Origin: Escherichia coli
GTDB taxonomy: Bacteria > Pseudomonadota > Gammaproteobacteria > Enterobacterales > Enterobacteriaceae
Assembly (NCBI RefSeq): GCF_002854065.1
Contig: NZ_CP024154.1
Strand: one strand, 5' to 3'
DNA: 64,000 bases
The position numbers and the translations under genes were made by a program. Positions 23,209 through 31,689 of the stretch are shown one piece after another. Below the pieces are notes generated by a model that saw only the letters and a program-made list of their open reading frames with translations, ran no database searches and was not told the DNA's origin. Each line of letters starts with the position of its first letter. The stretch's first letter is position 1.

Positions 23209-24313
23209 TGTGATACTCCTCGCTATCTGTTGCTTTCAGGAAGAGGCGAACGGAAGTGGCGTCTTTCAGGATGCCGGACGGCAGGTGCCAGCCGGTATCT
23301 GATAACACCCAGGGGGTTCCGCCAAAACCGAACTGGCGGAAAGCCTGGTTATTGACATCGATGGCAGCACGTGCGGCGGTCAGACACTGTCCATCCTGTG
23401 CGGCCGGTGCATCGCCGGTGGGGGCCATACCACTGTCAGCGGAATACAGCTGATGCCATCCGGTCGCCCGTTTTTGTGAGTCCGGTTCACACAGCAGCGG
23501 AGCAGTCCGCTTTGTACTGGACTCCCCGCCAATCACGGAGACCGGATAAATCACCACGCTGAATTCCCGGGCCAGTTGCTTAAGCGCGGGTTCCAGCAGA
23601 CGGCAGTTGATGCATGCGGGGTCAAGGAAGGCGTACAGCGTGCGTTCATGACCAGTGGACAGGTTAATGGTGAACATCCCCCGGTCTGCGTTGCGTTTAA
23701 GTACTGTGGCCAGATTACGGCGGGCCTCAGCGGCCTGAACGTGTTGTTCTTCCGTCACTGCCGTCGGGGCGGGGGCAGAAGAAGGTTCCTGCTGTGTGGG
23801 AGCCGGGCGGGCCGGGATGCTGTTAACATGATGTTCCGTATGTGGGCGTGGTGTCTCTGTGTCGGTTACTGGTTCAGCTCTCCATTCCTGAGATGTAGGG
23901 TAAGCCAGCGTGGAAGGGGACTCTGCCTTCATCCAGTGGTAACCTGCAACTGTCGCCGGCAGAGCAATTCCGGCGATAAAGCCACACATCAGTGTCCGCC
24001 AGAAGCCATTTTTCCGGGAGGGATGTTTTCCTTTTCCGGCATATTCGGCATCCAGGCAGGCATCAATCGCTGAGAGCATTCTGCCGATGTGATGTCCGGG
24101 ACGTTCTGCATCAACGGTATCAACAAGCACCGTTTCAGTTATTTCGCGAAAAGGGGAACTGAAGGACAGGTGCATCAGCCTGTTATTACGGTTAATCAGT
24201 GCGCCCAGTTCTGTTACCGGCAGGATGGCAATCACCTCCCGATTACCGTCAGGGTACAGGGCGGTCAGGGACAGGTGTTTATTATTCAGTGTTGCAGTGT
24301 AGTGGATGGTCAT
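23189..24313 (-). CDS. trbB: TrbB-like thioredoxin-fold disulfide isomerase
   Basis: CxxC motif (DPACINCRLLEP) in C-terminal half; Pro/Thr-rich linker; trbA-trbB-trbC order. Confidence 0.7.
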   Translation of the reverse strand: MTIHYTATLNNKHLSLTALYPDGNREVIAILPVTELGALINRNNRLMHLSFSSPFREITETVLVDTVDAERPGHHIGRMLSAIDACLDAEYAGKGKHPSRKNGFWRTLMCGFIAGIALPATVAGYHWMKAESPSTLAYPTSQEWRAEPVTDTETPRPHTEHHVNSIPARPAPTQQEPSSAPAPTAVTEEQHVQAAEARRNLATVLKRNADRGMFTINLSTGHERTLYAFLDPACINCRLLEPALKQLAREFSVVIYPVSVIGGESSTKRTAPLLCEPDSQKRATGWHQLYSADSGMAPTGDAPAAQDGQCLTAARAAIDVNNQAFRQFGFGGTPWVLSDTGWHLPSGILKDATSVRLFLKATDSEEYHNEPAPR

Positions 24314-25635
24314 TGTTCTTTTTCCTTGTCGGCGGGATGCTGTTTTTCGGTGGTTTCGGTGGTTTCGGTGGTTTCGGTGGTTTCGGTGGTTTCGGTGGTT
24401 TCGGTGGTTTCGGTGGTTTCACCAGTGTCAGTGTCTTCGTCGTTATCATGGCGGCGGGGTATCACGTCATCCGTGAGTGACCAGCGGGTCCTGATCTGAC
24501 GTTTACGATCGCGATCTGGCTGAGGTTCGTCCCATATCAGGCCCAGCCCCAGCATGTCCCGTCGAAGCCCTTCAATGGCCTCTTCCACACAGGGTTCCGG
24601 GCAGGGGAGGCCGAGACGGCTGGCTTCATTTTCTGCCCGGGCAACGGCCACCACGCCGGCCCCTTCGATGAAGCCTTTTGTGGTGTTTGCCCGGTGAAGG
24701 GCATAGAAGAGCGTCCGGTCAACGCCCTTGAGCCACAGCCAGTTGGGGGGCGTCAGGCGCAAATCATGTGCGTAAAGCCAGACAAGACCGCTGCGAACGT
24801 AACGGTGCTGCCTGAGCCACTGTTGTGCGTCTTCTGTTTTTATGACCCGGATAAAGGCGTTTCTGGCCAGTGAATACACTGGCGTGCTGAAACGCCCCTG
24901 GTCCCGCTTGCTTTTGAGTCTGCAGGAGAGGTTGAGGTTATTCATCAGGGAAACAGCCGATTTCCGGTCCCCAAGGAAGAACTGCAGGCCAAAGACGGCA
25001 AAGAGTGCTTTTTCATGTGGAGCCATGTCTTTCCAGGTGGTCAGAGGCTGGCCCAGTTGCGCCATAAAGCACTGGCGCGTGGCCGCAACATCGAGCTGCA
25101 TGTTGCGGATAAGGTTGTTCTGCTCCACAAAGGCTTCGGGGGTTAGAGCGACACGGCGCTCGGGACGTTTTTGTCCGTGGAAGAGTCTGTTGCTGTCTCC
25201 GTCAGCCAGAACGGGGGCGATCGCCGGTGACAGTGATGAAAACAGATGTGGCAGCGTGTGGATATTCAGTGGTCTGCGGGTGAAGCGGGGCTGGGCCGGA
25301 TGCTGAAACCACATCCACAGAAAGCCGATCGTCATGGGAAGCAGAATCAGCCAGAGGATCCCCACGGTCTGTGACATGACATCCAGCCACTGGCTGAAAG
25401 TGATCGTTGCAGCGTTGTTGGCGGTGTTGGCCAGCAGGTTATAACGGGGGGCGGCAAAATGGTGAAAAGGCCCCCAGTCAGTCATCCCCCACATTGTGTG
25501 CAGGATCAGGCAGGTGGCAAAGACGATGTCGGGTAAAAAGAGCCAGATGAGAAGCGCAAAGAGCAGACATATGGTGCCAACGATATACCATATGTTCATC
25601 GGGTCTTCTGTTGTGGGGGAGTGTTGGTAAGACAC
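24310..25635 (-). CDS. trbA: TrbA-like membrane protein with C-terminal (TET)n repeat
   Basis: 441-aa ORF with N-terminal TM segments; identity assigned by position upstream of trbB; 9-bp in-frame tandem repeat at 24349-24420. Confidence 0.6.
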   Translation of the reverse strand: MSYQHSPTTEDPMNIWYIVGTICLLFALLIWLFLPDIVFATCLILHTMWGMTDWGPFHHFAAPRYNLLANTANNAATITFSQWLDVMSQTVGILWLILLPMTIGFLWMWFQHPAQPRFTRRPLNIHTLPHLFSSLSPAIAPVLADGDSNRLFHGQKRPERRVALTPEAFVEQNNLIRNMQLDVAATRQCFMAQLGQPLTTWKDMAPHEKALFAVFGLQFFLGDRKSAVSLMNNLNLSCRLKSKRDQGRFSTPVYSLARNAFIRVIKTEDAQQWLRQHRYVRSGLVWLYAHDLRLTPPNWLWLKGVDRTLFYALHRANTTKGFIEGAGVVAVARAENEASRLGLPCPEPCVEEAIEGLRRDMLGLGLIWDEPQPDRDRKRQIRTRWSLTDDVIPRRHDNDEDTDTGETTETTETTETTETTETTETTETTEKQHPADKEKEQ

Positions 25636-25779
25636 GAGGATTCCTCCATCGATAAATAGATAAATTTCGGGATGAGGCTGAGTGGAATTAATGCGAACAA
25701 TCGCCGGTAATGACCGGGCAGGGCTGAATTCAGCAGGGCATTTTCACAGGAACAGCAGAAGGTGGTGAGAGACAGGCAC

Positions 25780-25810
25780 AAAAAAGCCGACTGGTGAGGC
25801 CGGCTTTTTT
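25780..25810. terminator. bidirectional rho-independent terminator-like hairpin (copy 1 of a duplicated element)
   Basis: AAAAAAGCCG-ACTGGTGAG-GCCGGCTTTTTT. Confidence 0.5.
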
Positions 25811-26083
25811 GCGATCCCAGGGAGAGTGGGTGGCTCTGGCCCGGAGGAAGTCTCTTTTCAACTAACGTTACCAGAATATCGTTATATTCACCTGATCGCA
25901 ATCTGTTCGTTACAGTCTATTGTTCCGGGAGTAGCGATATCGCCTGAAACAAGTATAATCAGCAAGTTAGCCTTGTCTGGAGACTTACCTTCGCATCAAT
26001 CCATTTGCCGTATTTTCGTAAAATTCAACAGGAAATATTCAACGGGAGTGAGAGAACTGCTGTCCGGGGAGGAGGTACAGACG

Positions 26084-26117
26084 CAAAAAAACCGACTGGT
26101 GAGGCCGGTTTTTTTGC
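26084..26117. terminator. bidirectional terminator-like hairpin (copy 2)
   Basis: AAAAAAACCG-ACTGGTGAG-GCCGGTTTTTTT, nearly identical to copy 1. Confidence 0.5.
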
Positions 26118-26431
26118 GATTCCGGATCGAAGTTGGTAGCCCTGACCGGAAGATAACTGCCTATAACTGACTATGAAATAATACGGCTGAAATAATATTT
26201 CTGCAAGCACAGTATAAGTATATACTCGGTGTGTCAGCTTTGAGGCACGTTCTTTCCGGCATATCGTTCACCGGGATGAACAGGTTGCAAGTCCTGGCCA
26301 AAACATCAGGTGGTGCTGGTTTTGGTGCTCTGGCCGGAGAAGAACTGTCTATAACTGACACTATAGAAAACGTGGCGACAGGCAATGTAAGGGCAAACCA
26401 CGGTGTTCTTTCTCCATTGATGGAGAAGCGG

Positions 26432-26527
26432 ATGATTAACCTGTTAATCATCGTTCTCAGGGCGGTTGTTGCTGTGGCTAACGCAGTGATAGCTCTCCTG
26501 GAACTGATCCGGGAACTGGTTGACTGA
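26432..26527 (+). CDS. small hydrophobic peptide (31 aa), candidate type I toxin-like membrane peptide
   Basis: SD GGAGAA 5 nt upstream of ATG 26432; MINLLIIVLRAVVAVANAVIALLELIRELVD; hairpin terminator downstream. Confidence 0.35.
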   Translation: MINLLIIVLRAVVAVANAVIALLELIRELVD

Positions 26528-26589: not shown

Positions 26590-26766
26590 TCAGGTTAAAA
26601 ATCGAAAACCTTCCTGCACTTCCTGTGCCTGTTCCCGTGAGTCAAACATGAGCCGGCTTTTACCCGGAACTCCCCAGGAAATATATTCTACATCCACCCA
26701 CCATTTTCCGTATTCTTCATACGGTCCGGATATCACTTTAGTGACAAATGCATCAACCAGGTTCAT
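26590..26766 (-). CDS. hypothetical small protein (58 aa) downstream of the nuclease gene
   Basis: SD AAAGGTG upstream of ATG; MNLVDAFVTKVISGPYEEYGKWWVDVEY...; below the ORF-track size cutoff. Confidence 0.35.
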   Translation of the reverse strand: MNLVDAFVTKVISGPYEEYGKWWVDVEYISWGVPGKSRLMFDSREQAQEVQEGFRFLT

Positions 26767-26915: not shown

Positions 26916-27383
26916 TTATTTCTTATTCTGTTTTCTCCAGGTCCATGGTGGTACCGGATTTTTATCTGCCCATAATCCCCGCTTCAGGGCGCGGGCATCA
27001 CGCTGGAGCGGCGGGAGAGTATAGTCATTATTGTAGTCCGGGTACACCCAGGCAGCGCCGTTACGGACCTGCCAGCGATTTGCTTCTGTGCCGTCAGCGG
27101 TATAGACCCGGCCGAGAATACGGCCATACCTGTCTGTCTGCGCGTATTGCACGGTTACGGGCTTTCCGGCCACCAGGTCCTTCAGCTGAGTGGCTGACCA
27201 GCGTCCAAAGGGCTGTTTCTTTTCCGGTGCATCAATATTAGCCAGACGGACCCTGACAGGCTTTTTGTCCTGTAATATTTCCAGCGTATCACCATCAAGA
27301 ACGCGGATGACGTGCCCCTGAATCTGTGCGGCACAGAGAGAAGCGGAAAAAATAATGGTGAGTGAAAAGATATATTTTATCAT
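26916..27383 (-). CDS. secreted thermonuclease (staphylococcal nuclease-like) family protein
   Basis: Signal peptide; SNase-like motifs (VIRVLDGDTLEI, RLANIDAPE, YGRILGRVY). Confidence 0.8.
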   Translation of the reverse strand: MIKYIFSLTIIFSASLCAAQIQGHVIRVLDGDTLEILQDKKPVRVRLANIDAPEKKQPFGRWSATQLKDLVAGKPVTVQYAQTDRYGRILGRVYTADGTEANRWQVRNGAAWVYPDYNNDYTLPPLQRDARALKRGLWADKNPVPPWTWRKQNKK

Positions 27384-27484: not shown

Positions 27485-28165
27485 ATGAATTCCAGTACGC
27501 TGATATCCGTGATGATACGGCAACAGATATCCGGTGACGGTATGCAGGAACATATTGATTATCAGATTGAGAAATATCAGTTCAGGGCCAGGAATGAGTC
27601 ACCGCGACTGATGCGCCAGTGGGAAGATGTCATGCGTGAATGCCGTGATACCGGAGCAGGAGCCAGGGAGCGGCTGCGGATTGCCTTACTTAATGTTGAT
27701 TATGTGACCAGTTTTGAACTGCCGTTTCGTCTGCTGTTAACCCGGACACCGCAGATGATTGACAGCGTGCGGCGGGAATGGCAGCTCAGCCAGAAAAAAG
27801 TCGTATTCAATGAGCGGCAGCGGGGATGTGTATACAGTCTGCAGAATGACTTATCCGGCGTGCCGGATAGCTTCAGTTACAGTCTTGCGACGCGAATACG
27901 GCGGGTGGACAGCTATGGCATGACGACGCGTTGTTTCACTGATATAGCCGGGCAGGTTAAAGCCCCGACAGCACGGCTGAAACTGGCGCTGGAAAGCGGG
28001 TTAATTGTCACCGCGCTGGATGGTCTGTTCTGGCTTGGTATTCAACGTATTGCCGCAGATGTGCAGCGGCTGCGTCAGTCCGGAATGACAATCATCACCC
28101 GGGATGTTGAGGTCTCAGACTCGCTGACCGGAACCACACGGGTTGTTTCCGGGTACAGCCTTTGA
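27485..28165 (+). CDS. hypothetical protein (up to 226 aa), possible DNA-binding protein
   Basis: ORF; several candidate starts; C-terminal region resembles a winged-helix fold by composition only. Confidence 0.4.
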   Translation: MNSSTLISVMIRQQISGDGMQEHIDYQIEKYQFRARNESPRLMRQWEDVMRECRDTGAGARERLRIALLNVDYVTSFELPFRLLLTRTPQMIDSVRREWQLSQKKVVFNERQRGCVYSLQNDLSGVPDSFSYSLATRIRRVDSYGMTTRCFTDIAGQVKAPTARLKLALESGLIVTALDGLFWLGIQRIAADVQRLRQSGMTIITRDVEVSDSLTGTTRVVSGYSL

Positions 28166-28366
28166 TTTATGCAACAAAGTATCGCAGCGTCGAATATGAG
28201 CTATGGCCAGATTTTTGTTAATCGTGGTTGTTGCAACATGTAAGGCGAATGACCACACTATTCTGGCACGCTCGTAATCATGCTGAAATTCTGCTTCCTG
28301 TCCTGCCGTGATGAGTTCCGACCAGGACATACGGCGAAGTGTATGTCTGTCAGTAATATCCGTCAT
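28115..28366 (-). CDS. hypothetical small protein (83 aa)
   Basis: ORF whose start overlaps the stop of the upstream gene (ATGA); last gene of a three-gene minus-strand cluster. Confidence 0.4.
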   Translation of the reverse strand: MTDITDRHTLRRMSWSELITAGQEAEFQHDYERARIVWSFALHVATTTINKNLAIAHIRRCDTLLHKSKAVPGNNPCGSGQRV

Positions 28367-28578
28367 GAGCTCTCAGCCTCCTCCTTCGTATTTCCGTCAG
28401 AAACACAAACGCCCCGCAGAGAAAATTCGCCAACATTCTCCTTTTTAATGGCGCGCAATGCATCGCGGCAGGCCCGTTCGGTATGAAAGGCCTGGCTGTG
28501 CACCGCCAGTGTGGGCTGACGGGCATCACCGGAAGAGACATTAAAGGGCGATGAAAGCCAGAAAATCAGTAGCCACAT
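28363..28578 (-). CDS. hypothetical small protein with N-terminal hydrophobic segment (71 aa)
   Basis: ORF only. Confidence 0.4.
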   Translation of the reverse strand: MWLLIFWLSSPFNVSSGDARQPTLAVHSQAFHTERACRDALRAIKKENVGEFSLRGVCVSDGNTKEEAESS

Positions 28579-28581
28579 GCG

Positions 28582-28965
28582 TCACACCTCGTCCTTTTTA
28601 TGCGGGTATCTGGACAGAATATTGAGCGCCTGTAATGGCGCTTCATGCATTTCACGGATACAACGGGCATCGGTGATATTTTCCCGGTAATGTGTGGTTT
28701 CCAGCATCATATGATGCATATGGAGCATCCGGGCCAGGGCTGCGCGGAGTTCTTCAATATGTTGTTCATGGGAATGCTGGCGGGGCTGTATCCGGCAGAG
28801 AGGGATAACCTCCACATCATCCGGGTGCGCGCGAAGCCACGCGTCAGTGACTGCAATGTCGTCAGTGTAAAACCATGTGCCGGATGTCCCGTTGGCCAGA
28901 AAACGCATTTTCCAGGCTTCTGGGGTGGCGGTTGTGTTGTTATCTTTCATGGTGCCACCACTCAT
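28582..28965 (-). CDS. hypothetical protein (about 122-127 aa), His-rich
   Basis: ORF only; first gene of the three-gene cluster. Confidence 0.45.
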   Translation of the reverse strand: MSGGTMKDNNTTATPEAWKMRFLANGTSGTWFYTDDIAVTDAWLRAHPDDVEVIPLCRIQPRQHSHEQHIEELRAALARMLHMHHMMLETTHYRENITDARCIREMHEAPLQALNILSRYPHKKDEV

Positions 28966-29240
28966 TCAACAGGCTTAATGCTGTCCAGGCGCAGTCTGCT
29001 CAGACTGCCGTGGCTGCCACAGCGGCGTCCAGTGCTTTTGCTGTAGCACTCCTGCCCCCTGATACACCATGCCGTTGGCGTTTCGTAGAGGCTGACACGT
29101 CGGGTTTTATCTTTAATGATGAGAAGCCCGGTGTGAGTTTTTGTCTTTTTCATCGGTGGGGTACAAACGCAGAGATTTTGTTGTCATCAGTTTTTGCCTG
29201 CAGAGGCCTGAAAAGACAGCGTTTTCAGGCCCTGTTCAGG

Positions 29241-29483
29241 TTAGTGAATATTCTTGCCTGGCCTTTCGGCAATATCAATCCCCTGAAGTTGCATGGATAT
29301 CCCATGCCCATTGAGCATCTGGCTGTCCATGGAATTGATACCGCATGTCATCATCAGGTTGTAACAAAGCGTACTCAGCATGGTGAGCGCCTCTTCTGAG
29401 GATTTACAATGTGTATTCATAAGGGCCAGAAACTGCTCAACAACATCCGGGTTAATGCTGGTACTGTGTATTTCATCCTTCAT
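29241..29483 (-). CDS. hypothetical small protein (80 aa)
   Basis: SD AAGGA 6 nt upstream of ATG 29483. Confidence 0.4.
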   Translation of the reverse strand: MKDEIHSTSINPDVVEQFLALMNTHCKSSEEALTMLSTLCYNLMMTCGINSMDSQMLNGHGISMQLQGIDIAERPGKNIH

Positions 29484-29664
29484 GATGTGTCCTTGTTTTT
29501 TATTATTTTGCATTTCAGAAAATAACACGATGCCTGCAGCCCGGAAAACAGATGTGTGCACACGTAGTCACTTTCCGGCTTTATTTCTGTCCCTGACACA
29601 AAATACGTGGTGGCATGAAAAGGATTGTGGCGGACAGGAAAACGATTAGAATAGCGGCGGGCGC

Positions 29665-29958
29665 TTGAGGCTGTATGCCGAAAGCGTTTTGTGGACGGCA
29701 TGTAGCAGAAAGCCCCAGGCGATTTTTTTATCAATCAACCCAGGGCCCACTGTAATGCCTCAACAACATTATAGTAGCCCGATGACGGCCGAAAGGCAAT
29801 GGAGGGGCTGCGATGCCACAACGAACGTTTTTAATGATGTTAATCGTCGTCTGTGTGACGATACTGTGTTTTGTCTGGATGGTGAGGGATTCGCTTTGCG
29901 GATTTCGTATCGAGCAGGGAAATACGGTGCTTGTGGCAACGTTAGCCTACGAAGTTAA
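29665..29958 (+). CDS. pndC: pndC (mok-like) overlapping leader reading frame of the pnd locus
   Basis: Reading frame that overlaps and ends inside pndA in a different frame, as in hok/mok loci. Confidence 0.5.
   Translation: MRLYAESVLWTACSRKPQAIFLSINPGPTVMPQQHYSSPMTAERQWRGCDATTNVFNDVNRRLCDDTVFCLDGEGFALRISYRAGKYGACGNVSLRS
29690..29780 (-). ncRNA. pndB: expected position of PndB (Sok-like) antisense RNA; not delimited from sequence
   Basis: Placed by analogy to hok/sok architecture only. Confidence 0.25.
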
Positions 29959-29965
29959 ACGTTAA
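29813..29965 (+). CDS. pndA: PndA, Hok-family type I toxin (50 aa)
   Basis: MPQRTFLMMLIVVCVTILCFVWMVRDSLCGFRIEQGNTVLVATLAYEVKR; hairpin terminator at about 29975-30005. Confidence 0.85.
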   Translation: MPQRTFLMMLIVVCVTILCFVWMVRDSLCGFRIEQGNTVLVATLAYEVKR

Positions 29966-30102: not shown

Positions 30103-31689
30103 TCAATTATGACAGTCGCTCTCATTTGGTTGTCTCTGGTTAGATGTATTATTAGATATTTTCGGGGTAATTCGATAAAAGTTATCCACTTCAGCACCAG
30201 ACTGAATGATATATGCAATAAGATCTAAACGATGAATCTCGTATCGTGTACGTAACTCCATCATTTCACGCCATGCTAAAATCCTTGATGTTTTCAGTTC
30301 AGCCTCTATAAGTTTCCATGTGTTTGTTGAGATGGCATGTTCTTCCAGCTGACGTAACGAGAACCTATCACTAATGACCAACCATCCCCATCCTCGAGTA
30401 TGTGCCCATTTGCGACCTGCATTACTTTTTATTCTCGTGAGACTCAAGGTCATTCGGTCTGTTGGCTTCACTTCCATAAGTAGGCACCGACCATCAACTG
30501 TCGCAATGAGTAAATCTGGATAGTATTTTTTTGATTTGTTTTTAAAACAATATGGAATAGAAAATGGTTGTTCTTGATAGAAAAGAACCTGATCGCAACA
30601 TTCTAATAGATTCATTATTTTAAACTCAAGCCCTGATTCGTACTGGACTGTACGACCTAATTTTTGAGAGTAAAAGAATCCAGATATGTCAGTATCATTA
30701 ACCGCTCTCTGTGAACATAGCTGTTCTACGGGGGGAGGAGGTGCGATATATTTTGGCCAATGTGTATTGTCTAGCCATTTACTGAATATGAACTCAACTC
30801 TTTCTTTCTTGATTCGGGCTCTTTCCTGAGCGTGAGCGTGTGCTAATTCTGCTCTTCGTTCACGTAACTTCTGCTTTTGTAATTGTGATATTAATGAGAG
30901 CGAATTTTTTATTTCATCTCGTCTTGCTTTAGGAATGCCTGCGGCAAAAATGATGAATTTGGCGGCTAACTCAGAGGATGTAACGAAATCCCGATGAACA
31001 ATACGATAAATCCATACTGCTATATCATATGGTGAATTACCTATTGAGTTAATAAGGGCTTTAAGGCAAGCTCCAGGTGTCCCTTCATAGCGAGATTTAG
31101 CAGCTAGTAAGCCAAGGGCTCGTTCCTGAAGTTGTCTTACCCTTTCACGGGAAATTCCTAATTTGACGGCAATATCTGCCAGAGAATGAGGTGAATCATC
31201 TGTGCCGAGTCGCATTAGAAGAATATATTGATGTCGTTTATTAGATAAACTTTCGATAGCAGAATGAATTAGCATAATGACATCATGTTCATCGGCTATA
31301 TAATCTTTAAAATCTGTATTGGGTTGGCAGAGGGGGAGTGGGGTATTTTGTTTAAAACTATTCTTTTGTATTTCAACTTTATCATGAGCAATTGTTTTTG
31401 CAGTGCTCAATGATATTAAATTATTGATGATACTATTGTGTTCTTGGCGAGGAATCTTGTTGAAGTAATTGCTGAGGTCATTCACCGTGTTTATATCGTT
31501 GAACTCAAGAAACTCAGAAGGAAGCAGGCGTTTGATTGCTCCACGTATTCCCCCGGACGATCGTTGATGTGTTTGAGTAAGTTTTTTTAGCGAGACGCCC
31601 TCCGCTATGGATACGAGAAGACGCTGTAACTCTTCAGTATTCCATGGAGTACCATGTCGTGCTGGAAAATTGCTGCGGGATTCAGACAT
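30103..31689 (-). CDS. 528-aa protein with N-terminal HTH domains and C-terminal PD-(D/E)XK-like nuclease motif, in AT-rich DNA
   Basis: Sigma-70 region-4-like HTH (SLADIAVKLGISRERVRQLQERALGLL); Myb/GcrA-like N-terminus (PWNTEELQRL); C-terminal YYPD...LLMEVKP. Confidence 0.55.
   Translation of the reverse strand: MSESRSNFPARHGTPWNTEELQRLLVSIAEGVSLKKLTQTHQRSSGGIRGAIKRLLPSEFLEFNDINTVNDLSNYFNKIPRQEHNSIINNLISLSTAKTIAHDKVEIQKNSFKQNTPLPLCQPNTDFKDYIADEHDVIMLIHSAIESLSNKRHQYILLMRLGTDDSPHSLADIAVKLGISRERVRQLQERALGLLAAKSRYEGTPGACLKALINSIGNSPYDIAVWIYRIVHRDFVTSSELAAKFIIFAAGIPKARRDEIKNSLSLISQLQKQKLRERRAELAHAHAQERARIKKERVEFIFSKWLDNTHWPKYIAPPPPVEQLCSQRAVNDTDISGFFYSQKLGRTVQYESGLEFKIMNLLECCDQVLFYQEQPFSIPYCFKNKSKKYYPDLLIATVDGRCLLMEVKPTDRMTLSLTRIKSNAGRKWAHTRGWGWLVISDRFSLRQLEEHAISTNTWKLIEAELKTSRILAWREMMELRTRYEIHRLDLIAYIIQSGAEVDNFYRITPKISNNTSNQRQPNESDCHN

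Follow-up and report, generated by a model that had tools for sequence, protein, structure and literature searches.

Six genes and one hairpin are located between a SNase-family nuclease gene (nuc) and the pnd locus in the window, the stretch of 64,000 nucleotides of Escherichia coli DNA (contig NZ_CP024154.1) that was analysed as a whole (Table 1). The slot that these genes occupy in an IncK/Z-type resistance plasmid was described in the first-pass annotation as one five-gene cluster, but its six genes belong to three separable blocks that move independently: block A, nuc together with the divergently oriented wHTH207 gene; block B, the four-gene minus-strand operon p63>p122>p71>p83, a mobile cassette of prophage ancestry; and block C, p80, which is linked to pnd. 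Two type I toxin-antitoxin loci, pnd/sok and dqlB/AgrB, flank the slot.

Table 1. Genes and other features of the slot and its surroundings (positions in the window)
Feature	Position	Strand	Description
nuc	26916-27383		SNase-family nuclease; flank of the region
wHTH207	27542-28165	+	207 aa; tandem winged-helix, ECs1377 family; earlier 226-aa ORF with corrected start
p83	28115-28366	-	83 aa; diverged ANR-like small protein; last gene of the operon
p71	28363-28578	-	71 aa; hydrophobic N-terminus and two conserved cysteines
p122	28582-28950	-	122 aa; orphan; earlier 127-aa ORF, alternative start 28965
p63	28962-29153	-	63 aa; basic; first gene of the operon
Hairpin	29205-29231		Between p80 and p63
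p80	29241-29483	-	80 aa; acidic; AAGGA Shine-Dalgarno sequence 6 nt upstream
sok	29659-29815		Rfam match, 124.7 bits
pnd	29813-29965		Hok/Gef ORF; flank of the region
528-aa gene (pCT_066)	30103-31689		TnsA_N and sigma70_r4

Gene content of the slot

All the ORFs named in the first-pass annotation were detected (27485-28165 on the plus strand, and 28115-28366, 28363-28578, 28582-28965 and 29241-29483 on the minus strand), but in two cases with a different start. The plus-strand ORF of 226 aa was an overcall: its true start is at 27542, because stop codons interrupt the 19-codon extension in one copy (L008) and all members of the family are 207 aa long. The 127-aa ORF also exists, but its start is most likely at 28950, which is common to the diverged homologs. 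The 80-aa gene and its good Shine-Dalgarno sequence were both confirmed, and the longer form of this last ORF, reaching 29561 (106 aa), was discarded as the extension is not conserved. The minus-strand cluster with overlapping ends had been counted as three genes; the overlap stands for the p71 stop codon and the p83 start codon (ATGA), but p63 was overlooked and the operon is therefore composed of four genes. The convergent overlap between the wHTH gene and p83, estimated at about 50 bp, was measured as 51 bp.

The ORFs of the region are real genes, with own-frame pN/pS values of 0.11-0.39 overall. All of them are open across five diverged copies, and the five ORFs other than p83 gave own-frame values of 0.12-0.35 among close copies, while the values for alternative frames were about 1 or higher in nearly all cases (minimum, 0.63). 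The slot was supposed to be AT-rich, a description that does not hold for a GC content of 0.509 against 0.540 in the whole window; the AT-rich neighbour is the 528-aa gene (GC 0.395).

Scanning of the region for promoters and terminators gave hits at chance level. The hairpin is composed of a perfect 10-bp stem (GGCCTGAAAA/TTTTCAGGCC) and a 7-nt loop, and is located near a block boundary; it carries no T-run, its z-score is only -1.6, and it is not a canonical intrinsic terminator.

Block structure and distribution

The block boundaries were identified by comparison with related plasmids. A pECOED plasmid (L010) matches the window up to 28163, the stop codon of the wHTH gene, and again from about 29215, and between the two shared stretches it carries genes for a DUF2569 protein and a phosphoethanolamine transferase. 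In the pECOED-type plasmids p80 is kept beside pnd and the operon is missing from this position, p80 being a separate unit that travels with pnd. In L019 and L020 a diverged cassette is located on the far side of nuc, next to trbA, and an IncI-gamma/K1 plasmid is devoid of the operon as well as of nuc and the wHTH gene. The slot is accessory, as was proposed in the first-pass annotation: the IncI-gamma/K1 plasmid lacks it, and the pECOED-type plasmids carry different cargo in part of it. The same annotation had considered, as a finding contrary to its own reading, that all the genes might be conserved backbone genes with assigned roles in related plasmids; instead, their presence is variable, no roles have been assigned, and the operon, being replaced or relocated in pECOED-type plasmids, does not keep the same position among IncI1, I-gamma, K, B, O and Z plasmids.

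The whole region was found in about 354 of the 1,843 matching plasmids, and in the remaining matching plasmids that were sampled the match is limited to the wHTH gene or to a segment of about 80 bp that precedes pnd. In PLSDB, the wHTH gene is present in 505 plasmids. The operon is found in about 365 at 90% identity or higher, and 213 plasmids carry it in a different context with 60-80% identity. A copy with 94-96% identity is located in UPEC islands beside iha, with sat within 10 kb. This near-identical fragment in UPEC pathogenicity islands shows that sequence has been exchanged between I-complex plasmids and chromosomal islands.

The compact overlap of genes, taken at first as operon design, is explained for the 51-bp overlap by the junction between blocks A and B, and is not a design feature. 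The C-terminal tail of p83 differs by lineage, and the last 17 codons of p83 are antisense to the 3' end of the wHTH gene; the native tail was replaced by read-through into this antisense sequence.

Gene products and SPATE linkage of the operon

The homology and structure searches recommended in the first-pass annotation yielded families for wHTH207, p63, p71 and p83, and no family match for p122 and p80. The description of all these genes as motif-less is thus superseded, since the ECs1377 family with HTH_39, a sub-threshold ANR match and several PHROG families can be assigned. PDB sequence searches with the wHTH protein, the 127-aa form of p122 (p127), p83 and p80 detected nothing significant.

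wHTH207 matched NF052300 (the NCBIfam ECs1377 family) with 300.6 bits (cutoff, 190) and HTH_39 (PF14090) with 26 bits (cutoff, 21.3), and it also has a PHROG family match. The AF2 model (pLDDT, 93.6) shows the arrangement of a winged-helix fold, in which a beta-hairpin wing comes after the helix-turn-helix, and can be superposed on known winged-helix regulators; the C-terminal winged helix superposes on phage HTH_39 proteins of about 70 aa (target TM, about 0.8). Fold searches of PDB and BFVD yielded single winged-helix domains only, and no full-length structural analogue; RepE54 was considered as an analogue and rejected on its weak matches (TM, 0.16-0.18). wHTH207 is most likely a DNA-binding transcription factor. 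No operator-like repeats were found for wHTH207, just a weak palindrome at 27518-27539, and the upstream regions of the plasmid and island ECs1377 genes gave no alignment. In the literature, ECs1377 was found in a single mention, in a CGH list.

Two of the operon products, p63 and p71, are related to phage proteins. p63 matched phrog_1226 and phrog_7520 at E 1.1e-16 and a total of 104 phage records with 43-53% identity; it is annotated by PGAP in two of the copies (L007 and L008), with pN/pS of 0.27-0.35. p71 (pN/pS, 0.11-0.12) matched phrog_3766 at E 2.5e-11, and its homologs are carried by Klebsiella lambdoid phages, adjoining the EaD/Eaa genes. The p71 gene is transcribed in pCT, where it is listed as HXG14_RS00270 in an RNA-seq supplement. 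A DUF1482/YebW-like identity of p71 was considered and dropped, as it obtained no Pfam support at E<0.1.

p122 (pN/pS, 0.13) has no match in Pfam, NCBIfam, PHROG, PADLOC or PDB, and its family is composed of 42 proteins, all at least 57% identical and restricted to E. coli and Shigella. The AF2 model made from a 9-sequence alignment was unusable (pLDDT, 52.8). p80 (pN/pS, 0.31), likewise with no protein family match, exists as two alleles of about 70% identity, of which the C-terminal 20 residues are identical.

The top match of p83 was NF033650 (ANR_neg_reg) with 20.6 bits, below the curated cutoff of 32. When six relatives of p83 were tested, ANR_neg_reg scored 15-30.7 bits, and it was the top, and mostly the sole, match in all seven proteins, but the cutoff of 32 bits was reached by no member of the p83 family (best, 30.7). 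The core of p83 can be aligned without gaps over the three helices with the Aar and Cnr proteins, D22, A26, W30, A33, N42 and C53 being invariant. As this alignment implies, p83 may share the all-alpha fold of three helices that is typical of ANR proteins. Among the signature residues of the ANR family (A10, E14, A22, W26, A29, W43 and R47; PMC4983702), E14, A22, W26 and A29 are present in p83 and A10 is replaced by Gly (Ala in sister copies); when the register is set by the conserved aromatic-Cys pair, Leu takes the place of W43, and His or Lys that of R47. By hhalign with small alignments, the p83 family and three real ANRs were aligned for helices 1-2 only (E 0.0035; probability, 9%), and ANR membership of p83 is therefore not claimed. 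p83 appears to be a diverged, sub-threshold relative of ANR/Aar that keeps most of the signature residues. For p83, a phrog_2227 match was obtained with P0033 at E 9e-8, and a tblastn search of phages with p83 gave no match. The pN/pS of p83 was 0.34-0.39 across deep divergence but 0.8-1.2 among close copies, that is, with no purifying selection there; relaxed constraint in an orphaned context would fit the latter values.

An arrangement recurring outside the window was defined in this analysis as the SPATE-trailing cassette, with no published family, in which p63>p122>p71>ANR-like genes directly follow the 3' end of a Peptidase_S6 autotransporter gene of like orientation. SPATE genes encode protease toxins. 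On an IncF plasmid (L017) the order is espP>p63>p122>p71>ANR-like, and on an IncK2/Z plasmid epeA is located near the cassette. Two further copies (L022 and L023) carry the uninterrupted order AraC>Peptidase_S6 autotransporter>p63>p122>p71>ANR-like, and in another (L006) the order of AraC, SPATE and cassette is broken by an IS3 element; in these three, the AraC gene upstream of the SPATE gene is YdeO/GadX-like. The cassette is contiguous with the 3' end of a SPATE gene in 163 of 5,426 complete E. coli genomes. The linkage is limited to the espP/epeA-like clade and does not extend to pic, sepA or espI, and a series of IS-mediated truncations is observed downstream of espP.

The cassette of the window has the same gene order, but the SPATE adjacency found in L017, L022, L023 and L006 is missing, because p80 sits at that position. 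Neither an AraC-family gene nor a SPATE gene was detected in the window by tblastn or in the annotation of the matching plasmid, and thus the presumed partner of p83 is missing. No paper on a cassette downstream of SPATE genes was found in the literature.

Proposed regulatory role and comparison with known systems

The best explanation, to which we give somewhat better than an even chance, is a mosaic accessory slot of IncK/B/O/Z-type (I-complex) plasmids carrying a regulator-like operon that would modulate AraC-type activators and/or H-NS. The AraC negative regulators (ANR), among them Aar of EAEC 042, Cnr of ETEC and Rnr of C. rodentium, act on AraC-type activators and H-NS (PMC4983702, PMC5570504), and Aar was reported to bind the oligomerisation domain of H-NS (PMC5570504). 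By analogy with Aar, p83 would be a small helical protein of ANR type acting without DNA binding, and might bind AraC-type activators at their dimerisation region, H-NS at its oligomerisation domain, or both, such binding being expected to damp or retune the AraC/H-NS regulons. Protein-protein modulation of these regulators is the most likely mode of action on this analogy. The cassettes found elsewhere are directly downstream of SPATE genes, and their fullest form adds a YdeO/GadX-like AraC activator before the SPATE gene. Since the cassette on the plasmid is orphaned from SPATE and AraC genes, any activity would be exerted in trans on host regulators.

Among the alternatives, the most probable is that the genes are phage-derived cargo from a lambdoid early region (ea/nin-type), serving for host takeover or anti-defence by countering defence or silencing; it overlaps in part with the preferred explanation, because an anti-H-NS activity of ANR type would count as host takeover. 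p63, p71 and p83 each match PHROG families, the homologs of p63 and p71 are located in lambdoid phages between replication genes and the nin region, beside EaD/Eaa, the C. rodentium ANR is in a predicted phage region (PMC4038620), and wHTH207 has a PHROG family and a C-terminal domain matching phage HTH_39 proteins. The matched PHROG families, however, have no known function, tblastn detected zero phage copies of p83 and two of p71, no phage was seen with all four genes, and the recurring neighbour is a SPATE gene, not phage genes; we regard this reading as fairly unlikely. Slightly less probable is the view that wHTH207 and the small proteins are plasmid-specific regulators of conjugation or exclusion, tuning the adjoining trb, exc and tra genes of IncK/B/O/Z plasmids. 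On either side of the cluster are trbA and excA, the cluster is kept at 99% identity or higher in about 350 conjugative plasmids, and in RNA-seq of pCT under AZT, p71, trbA and excA were up together (+0.94, +0.94 and +0.95 log2), yet the IncI-gamma/K1 plasmid has the same transfer system without the cluster, the operon is also carried by chromosomal islands and IncF virulence plasmids without I-type transfer genes, and the cluster relocates and is replaced within the lineage. Knockouts of pCT_065 and pCT_066, which are adjacent genes and not the cluster itself, also gave no conjugation phenotype (PMC4083329). A function shared with the adjacent 528-aa gene (pCT_066) was considered separately and rejected, there being no evidence for it and no phenotype of its knockout.

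It is quite unlikely that the operon is an inert hitchhiker, a SPATE-island remnant in a plasmid slot with no contribution to fitness: this agrees with the orphaned state of the copy, the relaxed pN/pS of p83 among close copies and the IS truncation series downstream of espP, but four operon or flanking genes are under strong purifying selection even among close copies (0.12-0.35), none of the plasmid and island copies examined has a broken ORF, and p71, at least, is transcribed. The first-pass annotation had proposed a regulatory or toxin-immunity module, of which the regulatory half is retained with the winged-helix and ANR-like proteins. The other half, in which one small protein is toxic and its neighbour neutralises it for stability or competition, is very unlikely. 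In its favour, ATGA overlaps couple the translation of these small genes, two type I loci flank them, p71 has a hydrophobic N-terminus, and p122, p63 and p80 are without known function; on the other hand, no toxin-like domain and no toxin, antitoxin, immunity or defence match was detected for the six proteins in PADLOC, Pfam and NCBIfam, the sole assignable product is regulator-like, and many genomes retain the cassette in truncated or IS-interrupted form, a kind of damage that is hard to reconcile with an addictive pair.

An extension of the preferred reading, that the cassette is an unrecognised regulatory accessory of espP/epeA-class SPATE genes, forming with the YdeO/GadX-like AraC gene upstream an activator/anti-activator (AraC/ANR) circuit about the protease gene, and that the orphan copies act in trans on host regulons, is speculative and rather improbable as a whole. 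If it is true, the orphan copies on globally successful IncK/B/O/Z resistance plasmids like pCT and in UPEC islands would act on AraC-family regulons of the host, GadX/YdeO acid resistance being an example, and on H-NS silencing, and carriage of AMR plasmids would be linked to virulence and stress regulation of the host. ANR proteins are known anti-virulence regulators. With a diverged ANR branch that trails SPATE genes, and that epidemic IncK-type resistance plasmids carry in orphaned form, a route is suggested by which plasmids and islands could retune host regulons. The same branch offers a starting point for the regulation of espP/epeA-type genes, of which little is understood. For annotation, two starts are corrected, one missed gene is added, and tandem winged-helix and ANR-like products are identified among genes that bear the label "hypothetical" or a spurious name ("neurotensin receptor R8" or "FlgM", for instance) in plasmids by the several hundred and in E. 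coli genomes by the thousands; "Neurotensin receptor R8" was found in a single mention in the literature, as an island annotation.

Compared with the chromosomal members of the ECs1377 family (NF052300), wHTH207 has the conserved length of 207 aa but is only about 64% identical. The chromosomal genes are preceded by a hypothetical gene of 169-182 aa and followed by a 77-aa gene, with a DUF4222 gene in convergent orientation, whereas on plasmids the partner of the gene is nuc. Early-region ORFs of lambdoid and P22-like phages, beside EaD/Eaa and nin genes, include homologs of p63 and p71 with 41-53% identity. In the phages these ORFs are dispersed and in many cases lack annotation; in the cassette their order is fixed, together with p122 and the ANR-like gene, and linked to SPATE genes.

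H-NST of EPEC and gp5.5 of T7 are small anti-H-NS proteins of mobile elements without a DNA-binding domain, which can retune silencing through binding to the oligomerisation domain of H-NS; the comparison of p83 with them is a functional analogy only, with no sequence relationship. With respect to Aar, the identity of p83 is 19-24%, and the counterparts of E18, D22, A26, W30, A33, N42 and C53 are conserved. A14 corresponds to Gly in p83 of the window and Ala in sister copies, W45 of helix 3, which is essential in Aar, to Leu in the p83 family, and R49 to His or Lys. With 83 aa and 9.4 kDa, p83 falls within the size of ANR proteins (<10 kDa), but is different from that family in its variable C-terminal tail and in its position at the end of a four-gene operon, the ANR gene being solitary and divergent from aggR or cfaD. 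p83 is carried on the window plasmid without an AraC partner, whereas L006, L022 and L023 have an AraC-family gene in the island.

Gene models and coding signals

Every ORF that the first-pass annotation had called in its five-gene cluster between nuc and pnd was found in place, and the convergent overlap, estimated there at about 50 bp, measures 51 bp. The gene list holds in that the listed ORFs are real, and is completed by a sixth gene, p63, which had been overlooked. The plus-strand ORF given as 226 aa encodes a 207-aa protein (wHTH207), the extension containing stop codons in one comparison locus (L008) and the family members being all 207 aa; the ORF given as 127 aa (p127) most likely encodes 122 aa (p122), matching diverged homologs; and the longer, 106-aa form of the last ORF lacks conservation. 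The slot had also been described as AT-rich, but its GC content is 0.509.

Features in and around the cluster (window coordinates)
Feature	Position	Strand	Remarks
trbA	24310-25635	minus	
AgrB antisense RNA	25778-25865		Rfam match, 37.4 bits, just under gathering score 40
AgrB antisense RNA	26083-26170		Rfam match, 47.7 bits, above gathering score 40
dqlB	about 26432-26527	plus	DinQ-like type I toxin gene; PGAP annotation transfer
58-aa gene	26590-26766	minus	phrog_8110, E 2e-18
nuc	26916-27383	minus	SNase-family
wHTH gene	27542 (start)	plus	207 aa
p83 gene	28115-28366	minus	83 aa
p122 gene	28950 (most likely start)	minus	
p63 gene	28962-29153	minus	
p80 gene	29241-29483		
sok (pnd)	29659-29815		Rfam match
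Hok/Gef ORF (pnd)	29813-29965		
528-aa gene	30103-31689	minus	TnsA_N (TnsA-like endonuclease N-terminal domain) + sigma70_r4 (sigma-70 region 4 HTH)

For the analysis of coding signals, the region was aligned with five diverged copies, three from plasmids (90-94% identity) and two chromosomal (94-96%). Every ORF is open in all five copies, and the wHTH, p71, p127, p63, and p80 genes are under clear purifying selection in the annotated frame (own-frame pN/pS 0.14, 0.12, 0.13, 0.35, and 0.31, respectively), the alternative-frame values being near or above 1 almost throughout, with a minimum of 0.63 for p63. For the 83-aa ORF (p83), pN/pS was 0.8-1.2 among close copies, with few substitutions, but across the deep divergence that separates it from the espP-linked and SPATE-linked copies (SPATE, protease-toxin autotransporter) its core gave 0.34-0.39 in the annotated frame against 0.9-1.6 in the others, indicating that p83 is a real gene that evolves faster. 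PGAP leaves out the p83-type gene wherever it overlaps the wHTH gene. The names that public annotations give it are spurious: a published island description (PMC7371111) and many entries of NCBI and UniRef call it "neurotensin receptor R8", and CP063731 has "flagellar biosynthesis protein FlgM".

Composition of the slot between trbA and excA

The window, which derives from a conjugative plasmid of the I-complex, is collinear at 94-99.99% identity with NZ_CP141226.1, a plasmid typed as IncK2/Z, MOBP, and MPF_I. The region of interest is placed between trbA and excA in the order trbA, dqlB/AgrB locus, 58-aa gene, nuc, region of interest, pnd, 528-aa gene, and excA. The cluster is bracketed by two type I toxin-antitoxin loci, dqlB/AgrB on one side and pnd/sok on the other. 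The conserved 58-aa gene adjoins dqlB in IncK2/Z and IncI-gamma/K1 plasmids alike. TrbA carries a tandem Glu-Thr-Thr repeat at its C-terminus (…GETTETTETTETTETTETTETTETTE…), and trbA ranges from 1209 to 1362 nt across related plasmids, which suggests that the repeat length may vary. The 528-aa protein, an unusual domain fusion encoded by an AT-rich gene (GC 0.395), corresponds to pCT_066 ("putative sigma factor") of plasmid pCT, knockout of which gave no phenotype (PMC4083329); the pCT_065 (pnd) knockout was likewise without phenotype. In pCT (L027 586-2893), nuc and the wHTH gene are separated by the insertion of an IS21-family element (istA/istB), which cuts the wHTH gene off from its usual divergent promoter region; despite this insertion pCT is a globally successful plasmid.

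The genes are real and flagging them was reasonable, but what had been taken for a five-gene functional module is an accessory mosaic, parts of which are present or have moved separately in pECOED, in loci L019 and L020, and in an IncI-gamma/K1 plasmid. pECOED retains nuc, the wHTH gene, p80, and pnd, the position of the minus-strand operon (p63, p122, p71, and p83) being taken by genes for a DUF2569 protein and a phosphoethanolamine transferase; its homology to the window ends with the wHTH stop codon at 28163 and restarts near 29215. In L019 and L020 a diverged operon copy lies on the opposite side of nuc, adjoining trbA, and the IncI-gamma/K1 plasmid is without nuc, the wHTH gene, and the operon. 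In PLSDB, 505 plasmids carry the wHTH gene, about 365 the operon at an identity of at least 90%, and 213 an operon copy of 60-80% identity placed in other contexts. The transferase, which in pECOED-type IncK2/Z plasmids (L010 4860-7050; L019 3822-6012) lies with the DUF2569 gene between the wHTH gene and p80, is a 511-aa EptA-like protein with a Sulfatase domain.

The 51-bp overlap could be taken as regulatory design or as a by-product of recombination. It falls exactly on the junction between the nuc-wHTH block and the operon, the p83 tail past its core varies by lineage (versions of 83, 90, 74, and 103-107 aa), and the final 17 codons of p83 in the window are the antisense of the wHTH gene 3' end; these observations altogether argue for an origin by recombination rather than by design. 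As to a toxin-immunity module, also proposed at first, nothing points to one, and none of the six proteins matched defence or toxin models. The p80 gene (L007-L009) exists as two alleles of about 70% protein identity (pS 0.33), the last 20 codons of which are identical and the flanking DNA 90-94% identical, indicating a recombination breakpoint within the gene; one of the alleles is extremely abundant, with about 1,000 contigs for each of the proteins P0211 and P0213.

A cassette trailing SPATE genes

The operon is mobile, and as a cassette it trails SPATE genes. An IncF virulence plasmid has its four genes, in unchanged order, immediately 3' of espP; in an IncK2/Z plasmid they occupy the slot beside trbA, near epeA; and they are also found 3' of a Peptidase_S6 autotransporter gene without a name, upstream of which lies a YdeO/GadX-like AraC-family gene. 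Of 5,426 complete E. coli genomes, 163 covered at least 80% of a query made up of the cassette and 1.2 kb from the 3' end of espP. Classical pO157 retains the spacer alone, and the cassette is absent at pic, sepA, and espI.

Uropathogenic (UPEC) islands carry a copy of window positions 27915-29642 at 94-96% identity, made up of what a truncation has left of the wHTH gene, its 3' part, and of the operon and p80, flanked by IS debris and adjoining iha, with sat within 10 kb. Since these copies contain the plasmid-type junction and the cut wHTH gene, they most likely descend from the plasmid-type arrangement, in what resembles plasmid-to-island transfer. The fragments in two islands with sat, iha, and pap (L002 14001-15721; L003 14001-15600) share their right-hand end, at window position 29642, just short of the sok region.

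Predicted proteins and the ANR likeness of p83

Against NCBIfam NF052300 ("ECs1377 family", cutoff 190) wHTH207 scored 300.6 bits, its C-terminal domain is Pfam HTH_39, and its AF2 model (13-sequence alignment; pLDDT 93.6, pTM 0.85) consists of two winged-helix units and an N-terminal strand-helix element; it is thus a tandem winged-helix protein that probably binds DNA, and would act as a regulator separate from p83. Only 106 relatives were found among 1.84 billion representative proteins. Chromosomal ECs1377-family genes (O157 island and E. coli 042; L004 7354-9148, L005 7110-9122) have a conserved mini-context of their own, in which the upstream neighbour is a hypothetical gene of 169-182 aa and the downstream neighbour one of 77 aa, accompanied by a convergent DUF4222 gene; in L004, Pfam, NCBIfam, and PHROGs gave no family match for the 169-aa and 77-aa products.

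p63 and p71 fall in PHROG families without known function, with homologs in lambdoid phages, where they neighbour EaD/Eaa genes in the stretch that separates the replication genes from the nin region. p122 is an orphan confined to E. coli and Shigella, and p80, which matched no family, weakly resembles a small pnd-flanking gene product of the IncI-gamma/K1 plasmid (36% over 42 residues). The literature searched reports no experiment on the cluster genes; the only expression evidence is the p71 gene (HXG14_RS00270) in a pCT RNA-seq supplement, at +0.94 log2 under AZT alongside trbA and excA.

p83 also matches a PHROG family. The NCBIfam model of the ANR family (AraC negative regulators), NF033650, was the top or sole match for p83 and all six relatives tested, at 15 to 30.7 bits, under the cutoff of 32. 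The reference ANRs, Aar (pAA) and two Cnr proteins (ETEC p948), were retrieved by the coordinates in PMC4038620. The core of p83 aligns with them without gaps, D22, A26, W30, A33, N42, and C53 (Aar numbering) being invariant, and four of the seven hallmark residues of the published signature (PMC4983702) are retained, A10 being Ala in sister copies. In contrast, the helix-3 Trp essential in Aar is Leu in p83, and R47 of the signature is His or Lys; hhalign with tiny alignments gave support limited to helices 1-2. With sub-cutoff scores and a partial signature, p83 is described as ANR-like, without a claim of family membership. New here are this assignment, the revisions to the gene models, and the cassette behind SPATE genes, of which no description was found in the literature searched.

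As the function of the cluster we infer that p83 may be a protein-binding anti-activator or an H-NS modulator. In islands ordered AraC-family gene, SPATE gene, and cassette, it could complete a feedback circuit acting on the AraC activator; the window and the matching plasmid hold no SPATE or AraC-family protein genes, and there p83 could act only in trans, on host regulators. The analogy is with Aar, which is without a DNA-binding domain, binds AggR and further AraC-family proteins at their central dimerisation region, and also binds H-NS, changing H-NS binding to promoter DNA (PMC4983702, PMC5570504).
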